A stretch of 64,000 nucleotides of DNA from Scenedesmus sp. PABB004 (taxonomy: Eukaryota), in assembly GCA_014905635.1 (NCBI GenBank), contig CM026547.1, positions 496,001 through 560,000 on the forward strand, read 5' to 3'. The notes beneath the pieces were generated by a model, which was not told where the DNA came from, searched no databases, and saw only the letters and a program-made list of their open reading frames with translations. A program made the translations under genes and the position numbers. Of the stretch, positions 1-20,713 are shown piece by piece. Position 1 is the stretch's first letter. Each line of letters begins with the position of its first letter.

Positions 1-3000
1 CTTGATGGCCATGCGCCCGACGCAGTTGGTGCAGGTCGCGACCACGCTGCCGGGCTGCAGGAACCACGCGCGGGCCACGCTGGCGGACGGGCACTCGCCC
101 TTGCCCGCGCACGCCGCCTCCACCTGCGGCACGTGCGTGCGTGCGTGCGGCGGGCGGCGAGGGTTGGCGGCGCGGCACGCTGAGCGTGCGCCCCAGCCAC
201 GGGGCTGCCGCGGCCAGCACAGCAGGCGCGACGCCGCCGCCGCCGCGCCCACCTGGCAGGGAATGGTGAGCGCGTCGGTGTCGCTCGCCGTCTTGCCGCC
301 GGACGTCACGACCGACACGCCCACGGTCGCGCCGACAGACGCGCCCACGCCGCAGATGCCCGCGGGCAGCGCGACGCTGGCTGTGCACGTCACGCTCGCG
401 CCGGGGGCCAGCGGGCCGAGGGTGGCGCATGTCATTGGCACCGCCGCGAGGGTGCCCACGTTGAGGCTGGGCGGCGATGAGGCGGTCCAGGCGGTGTTGG
501 CGCCGGCCGGGTTGGTCACGAGCGCAGAGTAAACAACCGTCCCTGCGCGGCGCGGCCGGCGGGGCGCGCGTGAGTGGGCGCGGGGCCTCGCGGCGCAGCG
601 CCAGCGCGGGGGCGCGCGGCGGGCACGCCCGCGTCAGCCCTGCAAGCGCACCCGGTGCGGCGGCAGAGATGCTCGTGGTGGTGGAGGTGAGTGCAATGTC
701 CACCTGCGGCCGCACGTCCATGGTCACAGTCTGGCTGACCGGCCGCTCCAGAGTCACGTCGCCCGTCTGGCCAGGTGTCAACGACGTGGCCGCGGCGACG
801 ACGGAGCAGCCGGCCGCGGCGCCGCTGATGGTGAGGTCGACCGACAGCGGGCTGCCCGACTCAAACGCCGCGGCGCTGACCGTCGTGGCGATCTTGCAGC
901 TCACGCTGCCGCCGGGCGCGGCCGCGCCGGCGAGGCTGCAGCCGGTCAGCGTGCGCGAGGCGGTCAGGCCGGTGAGGCGCCAGTTGCCATTGTTGGTCAC
1001 CGTGACGTCGCACTCGACCGGGCCGGCTGCGGCAGCGGGGGCGGCGGACGGCGGGCGGCCGTGCGTGAGCGAGCGGGCCCCCCGGCGCGCAGCCGCGAAG
1101 CGCCGCCAGCCCTCGCTGAAGCTCGAGCCCCTGGTGCCAGGCGCCCGAGCCCCTGGCAGTGCACGCGCGCGCCGCACCCGCGCTGATGGAGGTCGGGCAG
1201 ACCATCGACACCGCGAGCCCGGTGGCGCAGGTCGCGGTCACCGTCTCGGCCGCCGTGACGGGCGCGGGCAGCGTGGGGCTGGTGGCGGTCGCGGTGTTGA
1301 TGTGCCCCGCGGCGGCGCCCTCCATCGCCGCCTGGTCAAACGTGATGGACCCGGTGCACGTCAGCACCGCGCCAGGCGCGAGCGCGGCCGGCTGCGCGGG
1401 CGTGCAGGCGAGGCTGGGCACGCGCGGGTCGGCGATCGCCACGCTGGTGAGGCCCACGTTGCCCACGTTGGTCGCGACGATGGTGTAGGACACGACGCCT
1501 GCGCGCGGCGGCGGGCGGCGCGGAGCGACGCGGGCGCATGGGCGGCGGCGCGGGCACCGAGCGCGCGGGCGGCAACGCAGGCGCGGGCGGCCGCGCACGC
1601 GCGCGCGCGCGCGCGCGCGCGCGCACCTGGCGCCGAGAGCGTGGTGGTGTTGGCGGTCTTCTCCAGCTGCAGCGCGGGCGACTGCGCGGCGGCGGCCACT
1701 GCGTTGTCGGTGTCGAACACGGAGGGGCCGGCGTCGCCGCCCTCGGCGCCGCCCTCGGGCCGGGGCGGCTGCGCCCAGCTCGGCTCCGAGCCGGACACGC
1801 TGCCGGTGTTGACGATGCTGCCGGCGTCGATGTCGGCCTGCGCCACCGTGTAGCTGCCGCCGCACGTGAGCGTGGCGCCCACGGCGAGGTCCACGCCCGC
1901 CGCGCTCTCGCCGCACGCCGCGCCGGTCAGGTCAGGGATCATGGAGTCGGTCGGTGATCTTCACGCCAAAGAGCCTGAGAGGCAGGACGAGAGGAGGCAG
2001 TTAGTAGTAGGGTTTAGAGGGAGGGGAGGGGTTCAGCGCTGGGCGCGCGGAGGCCCCGCCCGGCGGGCCAGCCGCCGGCCGCGCGCACTTGATGTTGCCC
2101 GTGTTGTTGGCTACCAGCTCAAAGACCACCACGTTGCCGGGGCGCGAGAAGTTGCTGCCGCTGACGACCCGCTTGGCCAGCGAGAGCCTCTGCGCCGCAC
2201 GCGATCGATGGGAGATGGCGGGGAGGTGAGCGCGTGGCGGCGGGCGGCGTCGCAGGGGTGAGCCGCCGGGCCGGCGGCGGCGGGGTGGCGGCGCGGTGCG
2301 GCCCCGCGTGCGGCCAGCGAGCCGCCCGCCCGTGCACTCACGCCGGCCAGGGCAGGGCCTGAAGCGCGAGGGTGGTGCTGGCGCCCGTGGTCTGCTGGAC
2401 CTCCGTGTTGGTGGCCTGGCCGTTGACCACGACGCTGATGCTGCCCGCGTCCAGGTCGGCCTGGGTGATCACGTACGGCGCGGTGGTGCACGACACGGTG
2501 GCTCCGGGGGCCACGGCCGTGGACGGGGTGCAGCCAACGATCGTGACCGGCTCCCCGCCGACGCGCACCGACGTGAGCGAGAGCAGCTCGAGGACGTTGC
2601 CTGCCGCGGCGCGGCGCGGCGCGGCGGCGTGAGCTGCCGCAGCAGGCCGGCGCGGGTGCCCCGCGCCTGTGCGCCCCGCGCCGTGCCGCGTCACAGCAAG
2701 GGCGCCCACCCGTGTTGGTGAGCTCAACAGCCAGCGTGACGGCGTCGCCGACGGCATCATACTTGCCGGCCTCCACGCCGTCCACGGCCGCCACGCCGGT
2801 GAAGGTCAGCTTCACCTCGGGCGCGGTCGTGCGGATGGCGTCGTCAAAGGACTGCTCGGGCGCCTCGCCGCCGCCCGCGGTCGTGAGGTTGGCCGACACC
2901 GTCACGCTCTGGTCGGCGGAGCTGCGCGCGGCGCACGGGGGCGGCGCGGGTCAGCGCGGCGCAGCGGCAGCGCACGCGCGCGCATGTGCCCGCCATGCGC

Positions 3001-15459: not shown

Positions 15460-18400
15460 GGGTGAGCCGGCCGCGGCGCCGCGCGGGCGCGCGAGCGGGT
15501 GCGTGCGCGGCGCGGCGCGGGTGCACACCTTGGCGCTGTGGATCTGGCCGCCCGCGGCGGAGACCGCCTTGTCAAAGTGGCGCCGCAGCGCCGCGTCGGT
15601 GGTGCCAAAGTTGAGGTTCTTCACGTAGATGCACGCCACCGGCGCGCCGCCCTCCTCCTCAGCGCCCGCCGCCGCGCCGGCCTCCGCGCCCGCCGCCGCG
15701 CCCGCCGCCGCGCCCGCCGCCGCGCCGGCCTCCGCGCCCGCCGCCGCCGCCGGCCTCGCCTGCCGCGCCGGCGCGCGGCGCGGTCGCCGCCGCCGCCGCG
15801 GCCGCGGGCGGGGGCGCGTCCCAGATGTCGCGGGGCGCCCACTCGAGGTAGAGGGGCACCTGCTGGTACTTTTTGTACGCGAGGGCCTTGAACGCCGACC
15901 TGCGCGGCGAGCGCGAGCACGAGCGCGAGAGCGGCGGGAGGGTCGGCGGGCAGGGTCGGCGGCGCGGCGGCGGCGCGCGGCGGCAGCGCGGCGGCGGCGC
16001 GGCGACGGCGGCGGCCGCGCTCACCGCGCCTCCTGGGGCTCGGCAAACTCGACGAGCGCGAGCGTGCGCGTCGGCGGCAGCACGAGGCGCACCACGGTGC
16101 GCCCCGCGCCCGCGAGCAGCGCGCGCAGCTCCTCCTCGTCGGCCGAGTAGGGCAGGTTCTTCACCAGCAGGCTCGTGGGGCTGCGCGGCACGCTCACCGA
16201 CCCGCTCGCCTTGCCCGCCGCCGCGGCGGCCGCCTCGAGCGCGGACGTGTTAATGCCCGCGTCGGCGAGCGCCGCCTTGGTCTGCGCGATGACCTGCGCA
16301 GGGGCACGGCGGCGGCGGCGGCGCGGCGTGAGCACGGTGCGGCGCGGCGCGGCGCGGCGTGGGCGGCGGCGCGGCGGGGCGCAGCGCGGCGTGGGCGCGG
16401 CCCGCGCGTGCCGTGCCTGCGCCTCGCCGAGCGCCATGCGCAGCGGCAGGTCGCTCGCGCCGGCGTCGAGCAGCTGCGCCTTTGAGAGGCCGTAGTGCGC
16501 CGCGACAGCGGCGGCCACGGTGTCGGGGCGCATGAACAGGCTGCTCCACGCCGCGCGGTTGCCCGCATCGCCGCGGCGCTGCGCGTCGCGCTGCGCCTTG
16601 AAGCCGCCGGGGCCCTGCGCCGGTGGGCGAGCGTGCGCGTGCGGGCCGCGACGGCGGCCGCGTGAGCGCGCGGCGCCGTGCGCGCGCGCGTGGGCGGCGC
16701 AGTGCAGCGCAGCGCAGCGCGCGCGGGGCAGCGCACCCCGTCCTCGCCGCCGGCCGGCGCCGCCGGCGCGTCCTCGCCCGGCCTGCGCTGCCCCGGCAGC
16801 ACGTGCACCAGCCGGCCCTGCGCGTGCGGGGCGGGCGGCTGGGCGCGGCCGCGGCGCGCAGCCAGCTCCTTGGCGCACGCCCCAGCGCTCCCACGCCGTC
16901 GCGGCGCGCCCGCGCCGCTGCGGTGCTGACCTGGAACGGCGTCATATCCAGCGCGCGCAGCGCGCGCAGCGCGTCCTCGGGCACCACAAACTTGACGTGC
17001 GCGATGCCGCGCGAGCGCTTGGTCTCCCTGCCGGCGGAGCGCAGCGCGTAGCAGCGGCGTGGGCCAGGCGCAGCGGGCGCAGAGCGCTCTGCGCGGCGCG
17101 CCGCCGCGCCGCCGCGCGCTGCGCGTCGCCGCACCGGTCGAGCACGACGTGCACCTCCTCCAGCGCGCCAAACGCGCCGAAGAGCTCGCTCAGCTCCGCC
17201 TCGCCCGCGCCGTACGCGAGGTTGCGCACAAAGAGCCGCCCCGTGTCCAGGACCACGGCCTCTGCAGCCGCGTCGCCGCCGCCGCCGCTGCCGCCGCCGC
17301 TGCTGCCCACGCCCGCCTGGTCGCCGCGCGCGGACGCGTCGAGCTCGCCCGGCGGCGCGTCGGGCATGGCGGCGTCGCCGCCGTCCTCGTCGCTGCCGCT
17401 GCCGCCCTCGACGCCCTCGCTGCCGCTGCCGCTGCCGCCCTCGTCGCCGCTGCCGTCCTCGTCGCTGCCGCTGTCGCTGCTGCCCTCATCCTCGTCGCTG
17501 CTGCTCGCGCCGCCGCCGTTGCCGTCCCCGTCGCTGCTGCCGTCGTCGTCGCTCCACCCGGGCACGCGCTCGCCGGCGCCGCCGCGCCGCGGCGCCATGC
17601 GCGCGCGCAGGTACTCGAGGTCTGACACGCCCTCGTCCACCACCACCGCGTCCTTGCCCGCCAGCGCGGCGGCGCCGTCGTCGTCCTCGTCAGACGCCTC
17701 GTCAGACGCCTCATCTGACTCCCCCTCCTCCTCCTCGCCTGACGACGCGGCAGCGGCGGCGCCGCGCCCCCGCCGCTGCTGCTGTCGCTGCTGCTGTTGC
17801 TGGCCGAGCGGGAGGTCGACGTACAGCTCGTCCGCCTCGTCCTCGCCGCCGCCGCCGGCGCCGCCGCCGGCCGCCGCGGGCGCGGGCGGCGCGCCGTCGG
17901 CGGGCAGCAGCTCGTCGTTGCTCCAGATGCGCGCCTTGGCGCGGCGCTGCATGAGGGCCAGGAACTCAGCCAGCTTGGGATCGGCGGCCTCGGCCGCGCC
18001 CAGCCCGCGCGCCGCCTTGGCCGCCGCGCGCGCGGCCTTGTCCGCCGCGCGCGCCGCCTTTGCCGCGCGCGCGCGTCGCCCGGCGCGGCCGCGGCGGCCG
18101 CCGCCGCCGCGTCGGCCGCCGCCGCCTTGGCGAGCAGCGCCTGGTGGCGGCTGCTGCCGGCCGAGTACTTGCTCCAGGGGCGGTGCGCCTTGTCGGCCGC
18201 GGCCGCCGCGGCGGCCGCGGCCGCCGCCGACGCGTCCGCCGCGGCGCCGGCGGGCGCGCGGTAGCGCCGCGCAAACTCGATGCTCAGCTTGCTCGTGTCG
18301 ATGTAGGTGTGTTGAAAGTACTTCAGCGCCGCCGCCGCGTCGTCGACGCTGCGGTAGCCGACAAAGGCCATCTGGCGCGAGTGCCCGTCCCTGCGGCGCG

Positions 18401-18695
18401 CGCGCGCGCGGGCCCGGGCGCGGTCGCGGCGCACCCGCTGCCGTCGCGGCCGGCGCCGCGGCGCGGCGGCGCATGGCCCGCCGCGGGCGGCGGCGCGGAC
18501 GCGCGCTGCTGCTGCGCACCGCGTGAGCAGTATCTTCACGTCCGTCACCTGGCCCTTTGCGCCGAAGTGGGCCTTCAGGCGGTCCTCCTTGAGGTACTTG
18601 GGGATGTTCTTCACGCACAGGCGCGACGTCGCGCCCTCGAGCTCGGCCGCCGGCGCAGCGGACGCGCCGCCGCCGCCCGCCGGCGGCTGCGCCAT
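14582..18695 (-). CDS. MRD1: Multiple-RRM pre-rRNA processing protein MRD1/RBM19
   Basis: [41 protein letters not shown]...[81 protein letters not shown]. One frameshift near 18070. Confidence 0.92.
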
Positions 18696-19124
18696 GGCGG
18701 CGCCGCGGCGCAGCGCGCCCGGGGGCGTGGTGGGGAGGCGCACGACCGCGGGGGCCGCGCCGGGACGGCGCTGGTGCGGCGGGGGCGTCGCTCGCGCCGC
18801 GGCGCGCGCGAGGGGTGCGTGGCGGGACGCGCTGGCGGGCGCGGTCGGAGGCGTGGGCGGCGCTGGATTGTGGGAGCAGCGGCGCGGCGCGGTTGGACGC
18901 CCGCTCGCGGCGGTGTCACTGACAACGCGAGCAAAACCGCCCGCCGCGGCGCACACGGGGCTCGTCTGCGCGCCGCGCCGGCGCCAACGCACAGCCCCCG
19001 ACCTCGCGCACCGCCCGCGACGCAGCTGCGGGCCCCGCCGCGCCGCCAGTGCCCAGCAGCAGCAGCGCCAGCCGCCGCGGCCGCCGCGGGCCGCCGCGCA
19101 GCCCGGCGCGCGTGCGGCCGCGCC

Positions 19125-20713
19125 ATGGGCAAGGCCAAGAAGACCCGCAAGTTTGCAGAGGTCAAGCGCCTGCTGCACCCCAAGGACGCCGCGTGCGTGC
19201 CGCCGCGGCGCCCGGCGGCCGCCGCTGCTCGCGCGCCGCCGCTGCCTGCGCGGCGTGCGGCGCCTCCGCCCGACGCCGCGCCCGCGCCCGCGCCGCAGGC
19301 CGCCCAAGGCCAAGCAGCAGCAGCAGGCGCAGCAGGCGAAGAAGAAGAAGGAGGCGGAAGTGCGCCACGTGTGAGCGCGCCGCTGCGCCGCCTGCGCCGC
19401 GCGGCCGCCGCACGGCCGCCGCACCACCACCACGACTGTGCACGCCGCACCACCACCAACGCGCGCCTCCGCCGCACCACCACCACTGCGCAGCGAGAAG
19501 GTGTCGTCGGCGCTGTTCTTCAAGTACAACACGCAGCTCGGCCCGCCCTACCAGGTGCTGGTCGACACCAACTTCATAAACTTCTCCATCAAAAACAAGG
19601 CGCGCCCGGGCACACAGCACGCGGCGTGGTTGACCGCTGGCGCAGCAAACCGCCGCCGGCGCCGCGCCGGCGCTGCGCCGGCCCGCCGCGCGGCGCGGAG
19701 CGCGCTCACACGCGCATGCAAGCTTTGTCTGACAAACGCCACGCCCGCGCACGCACGCCCAGATTGACCTCGTGAAGGGCATGATGGACTGCCTCTACGC
19801 CGAGTGCACGCCAGTGATCACCGACTGCGTGATGGCGGAGCTGGAGAAGCTCGGCCAGAAGTACCGCGTCGCGCTCAAGGTCGCAAAGGTGCGGCGATGG
19901 GGGCCAGGCCGGCGGGAACCGCGCCCGGGGGGCTGCGGCGGCGGCGGGGCGGAGGCCGCCGCGCGGGTGGGGCCTGCGCTGAGGGGGGCAGAGGCGGCGG
20001 GGAGCGGGCTCGCGCCAGCAGCGCCCCCATGCCGCCCCGCCGCCGCGCCCCGCCGCCGCCGCCGCGCCCGCCGCCGGCAGGACCCGCGCATCGAGCGCCT
20101 GCCGTGCACGCACCGCGGCACGTACGCCGACGACTGCCTCTGCGAGCGCGTGCGGCAGCACAAGTGCTACATCGTGGCGACGTGCGACAAGGACCTGCGG
20201 CGCCGCATCCGCAAGGTGCGCACTCGAAGGGCGCGGTGTGCGCGCGCGCGCGTGTGTGTGTGTCGCGGTCAGCGTGTGTGCGTGTGCGTGTCATGTCAGC
20301 GCGTGTGCGCGGGGCCCTGGGGCGCGGCGAGGATTATAACCTCTTGTGTCGAGAGCACGCGCGGCGCACGCGCCGCCGGCGCTGATTGCCAACGGTGAAC
20401 AATCGCTGAGCCGCGCCCCGGGGAGGCCCCCTCCCCCCGCCCACCTGCTTTCTTTGTCGTTGTGGCGGCGTGTGTGCGCGGCGCGCGTGTGTGCGGCTGC
20501 CCCGGGCCCCCAACCCCTGCCTGCCAGCCCGGCCGGGGCGGCCGCCGCCGCGTCGCGCGGCGCGCCTGCTCGCTGGCCTCGCCCCCCGCCGCTCACACCC
20601 CCGCCCCACCGCGCCACCAGATCCCCGGTGTGCCCATCATGTACCTCAGCCAGCACCGCTACAGCATCGAGCGCCTGCCCGAGGCCACCATCGGCGGCGC
20701 GCCGCGCACGTGA
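19125..20713 (+). CDS. FCF1: rRNA-processing PIN-domain protein FCF1/UTP24 (6 exons)
   Basis: [110 protein letters not shown]. Confidence 0.96.
20319..20419 (+). ncRNA. Candidate intronic box C/D snoRNA guiding LSU rRNA 2'-O-methylation at the Um2921-equivalent position
   Basis: Lies in the last FCF1 intron. Perfect 10-bp terminal stem GGGGCGCGGC/GCCGCGCCCC; degenerate box C AGGATTA (20330-20336); box D CTGA (20406-20409); 11-nt guide GGTGAACAATC complementary to conserved LSU GAUUGUUCACC. Confidence 0.7.

Follow-up and report, generated by a model that had tools for sequence, protein, structure and literature searches.

Here we describe a candidate box C/D small nucleolar RNA (snoRNA) of the green alga Scenedesmus sp. 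PABB004, a core chlorophyte, carried by the last intron of its FCF1/UTP24 homologue. The gene lies in a stretch of 64,000 nucleotides (nt) of contig CM026547.1 (positions 496,001 to 560,000, forward strand), which is called the window throughout and whose numbering is used for all coordinates unless another locus is named. The decisive evidence is that the window element is conserved across the FCF1 last introns of three algae. Judged by its sequence, the element is very probably a methylation guide for a uridine (U) in the A-loop of large-subunit (LSU) ribosomal RNA (rRNA), and we put at about three in four the probability that 20319-20419 encodes a working intronic C/D snoRNA with the same function as the D guide of yeast snR52. 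Such an RNA would belong to a known class; its wider interest would lie in a non-canonical box C that seems to be typical of its family and in its apparently stable home in FCF1.

The FCF1 gene and its last intron

Six exons on the forward strand, when joined, encode an FCF1/UTP24 homologue of 199 amino acids (aa) without stops. Exon 4 (E = 3.8e-09) and exon 5 (E = 1.3e-12) both match the Pfam domain Fcf1 (PF04900), and among named homologues exon 5 comes closest to FCF1 of core chlorophytes, with 96% identity in Scenedesmus and 84-91% in Asterochloris, Trebouxia, Micractinium, Coccomyxa and Chlamydomonas, the C. reinhardtii gene being CHLRE_16g679450v5; this places the source of the window among the green algae. 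The last intron, with 405 nt, is the longest of the gene (the other four measure 106, 123, 163 and 192 nt), and it carries the element on the sense strand of FCF1 (Table 1). An initial annotation, made from the letters of this stretch, had assigned the element to the last and longest FCF1 intron, of about 405 nt, and the exon model, the Pfam matches and the shared strand bear this out. The third intron (19600-19762) shows an apparent GC donor (AAG/GCGCGC) instead of GT; both the reading frame and the alignment to FCF1 demand the junction at 19599/19600.

Table 1. Coordinates of the FCF1 gene and of the parts of the candidate snoRNA in the window
Feature	Position	Strand	Remarks
FCF1 exons 1-3	19125-19192, 19299-19370, 19494-19599	+	joined translation
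FCF1 exons 4-6	19763-19888, 20081-20215, 20621-20713	+	joined translation
Last (fifth) FCF1 intron, host of the candidate snoRNA	20216-20620	+	405 nt, GT-AG
Element with outer stem extension	20311-20430	+	20311-20316 pairs with 20425-20430 (fold)
Candidate box C/D snoRNA core, terminal stem to terminal stem	20319-20419	+	101 nt; putative mature ends
Terminal stem, 5' strand GGGGCGCGGC	20319-20328	+	pairs with 20410-20419
Variant box C, AGGAUUA	20330-20336	+	consensus RUGAUGA; one G between stem and box
5' half of the element, contains UAACCUCUUGUGU...		+	AT-richer stretch after box C
Internal GC hairpin, GCGGCG-CACG-CGCCGC	20361-20366/20371-20376	+	fold; between the halves of the element
Possible box C', CUGAUUG	20382-20388	+	read from the sequence; function inferred only
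Putative guide (antisense element) GGTGAACAATC, as RNA GGUGAACAAUC	20394-20404	+	11 nt
Spacer G	20405	+	single nt between guide and box D
Box D, CUGA	20406-20409	+	followed directly by the 3' stem strand
Terminal stem, 3' strand GCCGCGCCCC	20410-20419	+	directly 3' of box D

Anatomy of the element

All coordinates and features listed in the initial annotation are in place, including an outer stem extension that folds as proposed and a 10-bp terminal stem without mismatches. The latter has a free energy of -24.1 kcal/mol (-41 kcal/mol for the cofold of the extended stem) and was recovered in the inverted-repeat search as pair I10 (14 nt, 93%), one of 52 inverted-repeat pairs in the host intron alone. 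The AT-richer island described there is real, if modest, with a GC content in 60-nt windows of 0.65-0.72 over the element as against 0.80-0.92 in the 3' half of the intron. Inside the terminal stem the geometry is that of a kink-turn, with a 3-nt bulge (G/A/G) and then a GA opposite the GA of box D, and the CTGA taken as box D lies near the 3' end with the terminal stem directly after it.

No convincing box D' was found in the window copy, where the candidates are UCGA (20349-20352) and GAGA (20351-20354). The CTGA at 20383-20386 was considered as a box D' and rejected because it leaves only 7 nt before the guide, too little for a C' box. Reading box C in the alternative frame GCGAGGA (20327-20333) was likewise discarded: it leaves a stem of 2 bp in the kink-turn register and has no counterpart in three related elements described below (L048, L035 and L020). 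An 11-mer, GCGTGTGTGCG, occurs on either side of the candidate snoRNA, about 45 nt upstream (20272-20282) and about 50 nt downstream (20468-20478); both copies sit in low-complexity DNA rich in TG and CG, and the pair may be due to chance.

The statistical expectation for these features is low. With up to two mismatches allowed, the pattern of guide, any nucleotide and CTGA is present once in the window, where 0.01 occurrences are expected, and it was matched in one of 100 shuffled sequences. The 120-nt stretch from 20311 to 20430 folds with a minimum free energy of -71 kcal/mol (z = -4.26), a value that none of 200 shuffles equalled. The frame formed by a stem of at least 8 bp, 3 nt, GA, and then CTGA and the returning stem strand arises no more than 0.25 times per shuffled window (40 shuffles), and this figure is an upper bound, as the count is inflated by artefacts such as one frame spanning 26 kb. 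The combination of anatomy and guide is therefore unlikely to have come about by chance, even granting the first annotator a free choice of rRNA site.

A predicted target in the A-loop of LSU rRNA

A scan of viral contigs with a 15-nt version of the LSU motif returned 46 loci, one of which (L136) is the 3' end of a eukaryotic LSU rRNA (RF02543, 126.8 bits). The corresponding stretch of the Rfam LSU_rRNA_eukarya consensus is printed as uGUuGGAUUGUUCACCCaC, with the target motif in capitals, and so contains the LSU motif given in the initial annotation. In this consensus the motif forms a hairpin, with uGGAU/ACCCa as its stem and UGUUC as its loop (helix 92, the A-loop). The guide pairs over 11 bp with GAUUGUUCACC of this eukaryotic consensus. 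Because a single nucleotide separates the guide from box D, the D+5 rule places guide position 5 opposite the first loop U of helix 92, which is the second U of GAUUG, just as first proposed.

2'-O-methyluridine (Um) in the A-loop is among the few ribose methylations kept from bacteria to eukaryotes, and in E. coli it is made by RlmE. The target U corresponds to Um2921 of yeast, Um2552 of E. coli and Um2922 of Arabidopsis (PMC11121408, PMC8053127; statements taken from papers cited by such numbers hold for the excerpts available). In yeast it is made by snR52, with Spb1 as a back-up, so that the two makers named in the initial annotation agree with these sources (PMC11121408, PMC8053127). Methylation of this U is reported from yeast, human, Arabidopsis and Dictyostelium (PMC11542601, PMC8053127, PMC8817022); the human enzyme is FTSJ3 according to an excerpt of a 2024 review. 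For Um2922 of Arabidopsis, the available portions of PMC8053127 and PMC11542601 report no reliable snoRNA guide.

The same element in two further FCF1 introns

Metagenome contigs were scanned for the guide, any nucleotide and box D, with GATKA 35-65 nt upstream, a pattern in which the host gene had no part. The matches listed comprise at least 116 loci with 55 distinct local sequences; 48 of the loci represent one recurrent sequence, mainly from gut assemblies, and most of the remainder look like chance matches. By reading, 18 of these loci, with 13 distinct sequences, were judged to be snoRNA-like.

When the 116 listed loci were searched by tblastn with the FCF1 protein of the window, only two matched, L029 and L022, and both carry Pfam Fcf1. 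Each carries the element in its last intron and on the strand of the gene, flanked by the exon ending in ...RRRLRK and by the last exon, IPGVPIMY..., whose C-terminal peptide is that of the window gene. Their last introns measure about 395 and 332 nt, as compared with 405 nt in the window. In an alignment of the three introns only two blocks are invariant, CGGCGA.GATTA (20325-20336 in the window) and GGTGAACAATC.CTGAGCC.CG (20394-20415), and the remainder cannot be aligned. Neither the guide nor box D varies among the three FCF1 introns, and over guide, spacer and box D the window agrees with L029 and L022 at 15 of 16 positions, the sole difference being the free spacer nucleotide. Between L029 and L022 themselves, identity is 87% across the snoRNA and falls to 54% and 43% in the 100-nt flanks. 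The initial annotation had made its proposal dependent on guide and boxes being conserved in relatives, and the same RNA in the same intron of two more FCF1 genes is what was found.

The copies in L029 and L022 also have a canonical D' box, CTGA, preceded by a second guide, CCAATTTGCTT (L029:1509-1523), which is conserved between the two. In the window copy the place of this D' guide and its spacer is taken by the GC hairpin, which is not conserved in L029 and L022.

The variant box C

The box C of the window, AGGAUUA, matches the consensus RUGAUGA at five of seven positions and keeps the GA core and the U at position 5. The initial annotation had regarded its two deviations as a weakness. Both are there, and the objection is softened in part: the U at position 6 appears to be largely a family trait, and only the U-to-G change at position 2 is private to the window copy, which thereby differs by one base from its ATGATTA orthologues. 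As the scan pattern allowed GATGA or GATTA only, the share of GATTA among the matches is a biased frequency. A case independent of the pattern is provided by a group of loci with another architecture (the L006 group, see below), in which the C' box that partners the D' of the guide is ATGATTA, or CTGATTA in L072.

A G at position 2 has a precedent in Ostreococcus tauri, where Ot-CDsno13, a homologue of U14 supported by RNA-seq, reads ...CTCC G AGGATGA (PMC7671301); the boxes were assigned by reading, since the colour marking of the original is lost in the text. Several others of the O. tauri C/D snoRNAs in that excerpt, 13 of which were read, also seem to lack a U at position 2. Under the SnoBIRD heuristics, which separate expressed snoRNAs from snoRNA pseudogenes (PMC12309372, in part), the window copy obtains a C score of 2 and a D score of 0 and does not fall under the pseudogene rule, and its terminal-stem score, approximately 10 x -24.1, is far below the threshold of -25 that favours expression. 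The recurring U at position 6 would offer a natural test case for the tolerance of the snoRNP (small nucleolar ribonucleoprotein) kink-turn.

Same-guide elements outside FCF1

A common layout unites the window element with five distinct relatives found in the scan (L029, L022, L048 with its duplicate L095, L035 and L020): stem, 1 nt, box C, then the 11-nt guide, 1 nt, CUGA and the returning stem. Box C reads ATGATTA in all five; this AUGAUUA contrasts with the AGGAUUA of the window, and the internal sequences are unrelated to that of the window copy. None of these elements is in Rfam. Their terminal stems are 3-7 bp long, compared with at least 10 bp in the window copy, and reach -4.1 rather than -24.1 kcal/mol. 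Across the terminal stems of six family members, 65% of cells are paired, as against 30-39% when the partner strand is slid, and two-sided changes occur in nine of ten pairs, values that none of 500 shuffles reached. The three inner pairs are kept in all six, with a two-sided change of the innermost pair in L035 and of the second in L020. In these last two loci, UGAUU-type C' boxes stand at places similar to that of the possible C' box in the window.

Several of the loci are of interest in their own right. In L048, the same-guide snoRNA (1488-1585, plus strand; duplicate in L095) has the box C ATGATTA and a 7-bp stem (GTTGGC.../...GCCAAC), and it lies approximately 250 nt upstream of an open reading frame (ORF) piece matching domain 4 of Nrap (UTP22; E=1.1e-05), which would be another host gene with a role in ribosome biogenesis. 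L035 holds a cluster of snoRNAs on one strand (860-2420) that includes a same-guide snoRNA with ATGATTA at 1488-1585, a U14 match of 61.8 bits (gathering score 64) and weaker SNORD49-like and SNORD31-like matches; should this locus derive from a land plant or another streptophyte, it would bear on the missing guide for Um2922 of Arabidopsis.

A different architecture around the same 11-nt guide is seen in L006, L065, L080, L106 and L072 (L006:1490-1600, minus strand), where the order is a stem strand GATGG, box C GTGATGC, the A-loop guide, D' CTGA, a hairpin, C' ATGATTA (CTGATTA in L072), a second guide CAAACTTTTGCAC, box D CTGA and the stem strand CCATC. This element appears to lie in an intron of SecA, with Pfam SecA domains on both sides on the same strand, and its source would thus be a photosynthetic eukaryote. 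In L067 (minus strand, about 1500-1620 of the reversed locus) the guide occurs twice, as a D'-like GTGAACAATCTGTGA and, 8 nt later, as GGTGAACAATCTCTGA before box D, a candidate that would be a double guide for one site. Same-guide elements with a canonical box C were found in L003, L061 and L100. The two of these that were scanned, L003 and L100, belong to clusters with matches to the trypanosomatid families TBR17, TBR7 and TBR5, and their same-guide elements gave no match to RF02786 at E values up to 1.

We think it possible, if doubtful, that the window RNA is the green-lineage member of a widespread and uncatalogued family of guides for the A-loop U with a UGAUUA-type box C (or C', when the guide stands upstream of D'). 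Such a family would include the missing guide for 25S Um2922 of plants, missed in land plants since box-C-based predictors reject it, and in core chlorophytes it would have been kept in the last intron of FCF1 over a deep divergence.

Alternative explanations

Several observations weigh against a functional C/D snoRNA. Two positions of box C, 2 and 6, deviate from RUGAUGA. The former is the flipped-out U of the kink-turn, and the latter, which normally pairs with the C of box D, is a U in the window copy. The G before box D leaves no Watson-Crick pair beyond this U.U, at a place where L029 and L022 can form an A-U. The window copy lacks the D' guide of these relatives, CCAATTTGCTT-CTGA, and has no clear D' box, so that some of the RNA has been lost or reshaped. 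The orthologous introns among the matches listed are two in number and both lie on metagenome contigs. In the Rfam comparison suggested in the initial annotation, lastly, none of the families attained its gathering score anywhere in the window.

On these grounds the element might be a relic, that is, a recently disabled copy that no longer forms a stable snoRNP, with the A-loop U methylated by an Spb1/FTSJ3-type enzyme alone. The private G at position 2 comes on top of the family U at position 6, stem II has no Watson-Crick pair, the D' guide has been lost, and loss of the remaining guide would be tolerable because Spb1 serves as a back-up in yeast (PMC11121408) and because Arabidopsis, in the accessible text of PMC8053127, does without an assigned guide. 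We consider a relic unlikely all the same, since guide and box D are intact (the 15 of 16 positions given above), and these two, like the AT-rich block at box C, have persisted while the rest of the intron is unalignable and 76-90% GC. The strengthening of the terminal stem from the -4.1 kcal/mol of the relatives to -24.1 kcal/mol resembles compensation more than decay, a G at position 2 occurs in an expressed snoRNA of O. tauri (PMC7671301), and the pseudogene rule of SnoBIRD (PMC12309372) leaves this copy aside.

That the conserved structure acts in cis on the splicing or expression of FCF1, or that the RNA is a chaperone for helix 92 which does not direct methylation, is conceivable given that the host intron has been kept in three genomes and that box C is non-canonical throughout the family. 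RNAs with the same guide and layout outside FCF1, namely beside Nrap/UTP22 in L048, in the cluster of L035 and in the SecA intron of the L006 group, argue that the conserved thing is the guide RNA and not its host; together with the exact D+5 register on a site known to be methylated, they make either role very improbable. GC-rich introns abound in inverted repeats, as the 52 pairs in this one illustrate, and the target was picked after the sequence had been seen, so that an inverted repeat happening to enclose a CTGA and an 11-mer complementary to rRNA has to be weighed as well. Such a coincidence, with the pattern expected 0.01 times per window, is scarcely credible: the same RNA turned up in the same intron of two more FCF1 genes without the host gene being part of the search, and the invariant blocks of these introns are the boxes, the guide and the stem only. 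In our judgement chance is refuted by the conservation in FCF1 introns.

Proposed mechanism and implications

We accordingly prefer a functional snoRNA, and read the window RNA as a probable single-guide snoRNA whose weakened kink-turn would be buttressed by a long stem; we infer its expression, its assembly into a snoRNP and methylation of the A-loop U from sequence features. The snoRNA would be transcribed as part of the FCF1/UTP24 pre-mRNA and, after splicing, would be trimmed from the excised last intron up to the GC-rich terminal stem, which is expected to halt the exonucleases. The stem would set AGGAUUA beside CUGA, giving in succession stem, 3-nt bulge, tandem G.A pairs and then the U.U, a kink-turn motif on which Snu13, Nop56, Nop58 and fibrillarin could assemble. 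The 11 nt upstream of box D might then open LSU helix 92 by pairing with GAUUGUUCACC, and the nucleotide to be methylated would be the first A-loop U (yeast U2921, E. coli U2552, Arabidopsis U2922). The sequence of events is modelled throughout, splicing and methylation included, on what is established for intronic C/D snoRNPs.

If the wider reading of an uncatalogued guide family kept in FCF1 is true, a modification of the peptidyl-transferase centre would be coupled to the expression of a small-subunit (SSU) biogenesis factor, the SSU-processome nuclease FCF1. The maker of Um in the A-loop differs by lineage, and a guide conserved in green algae would point to an RNA-guided route in the green lineage. 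In practical terms, the analysis yields a search pattern (UGAUUA-type box C, 11-nt guide, one nt, CUGA) that can be used on land-plant genomes, and the annotation of FCF1 in Scenedesmus sp. PABB004 and its relatives would gain one snoRNA gene.

Neighbouring gene

A gene on the minus strand (16942-19100) stands head-to-head with FCF1. Its ORF pieces contain motifs like the RNA recognition motif (RRM), and on visual inspection the gene looks like MRD1/RBM19, a ribosome-biogenesis factor with several RRMs. Over all six frames, the window has 288 ORFs of at least 150 aa, mostly spurious in this GC-rich DNA.

Comparison with known systems

The best Rfam match to the region 20150-20650 (501 nt) is snoTBR2 of trypanosomatids (RF02786), whose gathering score of 62 is far above the 16.8 bits (E = 1.7) obtained here. 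The 3' end of its consensus, ggugAACAAUCuCUGA, holds the same guide, one-nt spacer and box D; membership in this family was rejected, as the score is below threshold and only guide and box D align. In the amoebozoan Dictyostelium discoideum, the available excerpt describes CD25 as the guide for Um3254 of 26S rRNA, the equivalent of Um2921 of yeast (PMC8817022).

Among catalogues, GTGAACAATC was not found in the snoRNA supplement for O. tauri, and neither GTGAACAATC nor GGTGAACAA was found in the accessible part of a compendium of plant and Chlamydomonas snoRNAs, whose partial coverage makes this absence incomplete. An earlier description in an alga may exist, as the original Chlamydomonas survey lies outside this comparison. 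A full-text literature search with 10-mers of guide and target returned only primers and similar sequences, one for RiboMeth-seq and snoRNAs in Chlamydomonas gave nothing on algal rRNA methylation, and one for snoTBR2 in Trypanosoma yielded no papers.

Yeast snR52 is an independent gene, unlike the intronic RNA of the window, and its small-subunit site is A420 of 18S rRNA. Snr52 of Saccharomyces cerevisiae and the window RNA have in common the box C/D class, the D+5 logic and the predicted site, Um2921 in 25S rRNA (PMC11121408, PMC8053127). They differ in that snR52 also serves a small-subunit site, with three snoRNAs covering one SSU residue (PMC11121408, in part), whereas the window copy shows no second guide. 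In the excerpt of a 2012 comparative study, snR52 could not be placed in the last eukaryotic common ancestor (PMC3511168). The likeness to snR52 would be one of functional equivalence, and of the D guide only; the D' guide CCAATTTGCTT of the two orthologous copies, if it were to fit the 18S site of snR52, would argue for deep orthology with the yeast RNA.

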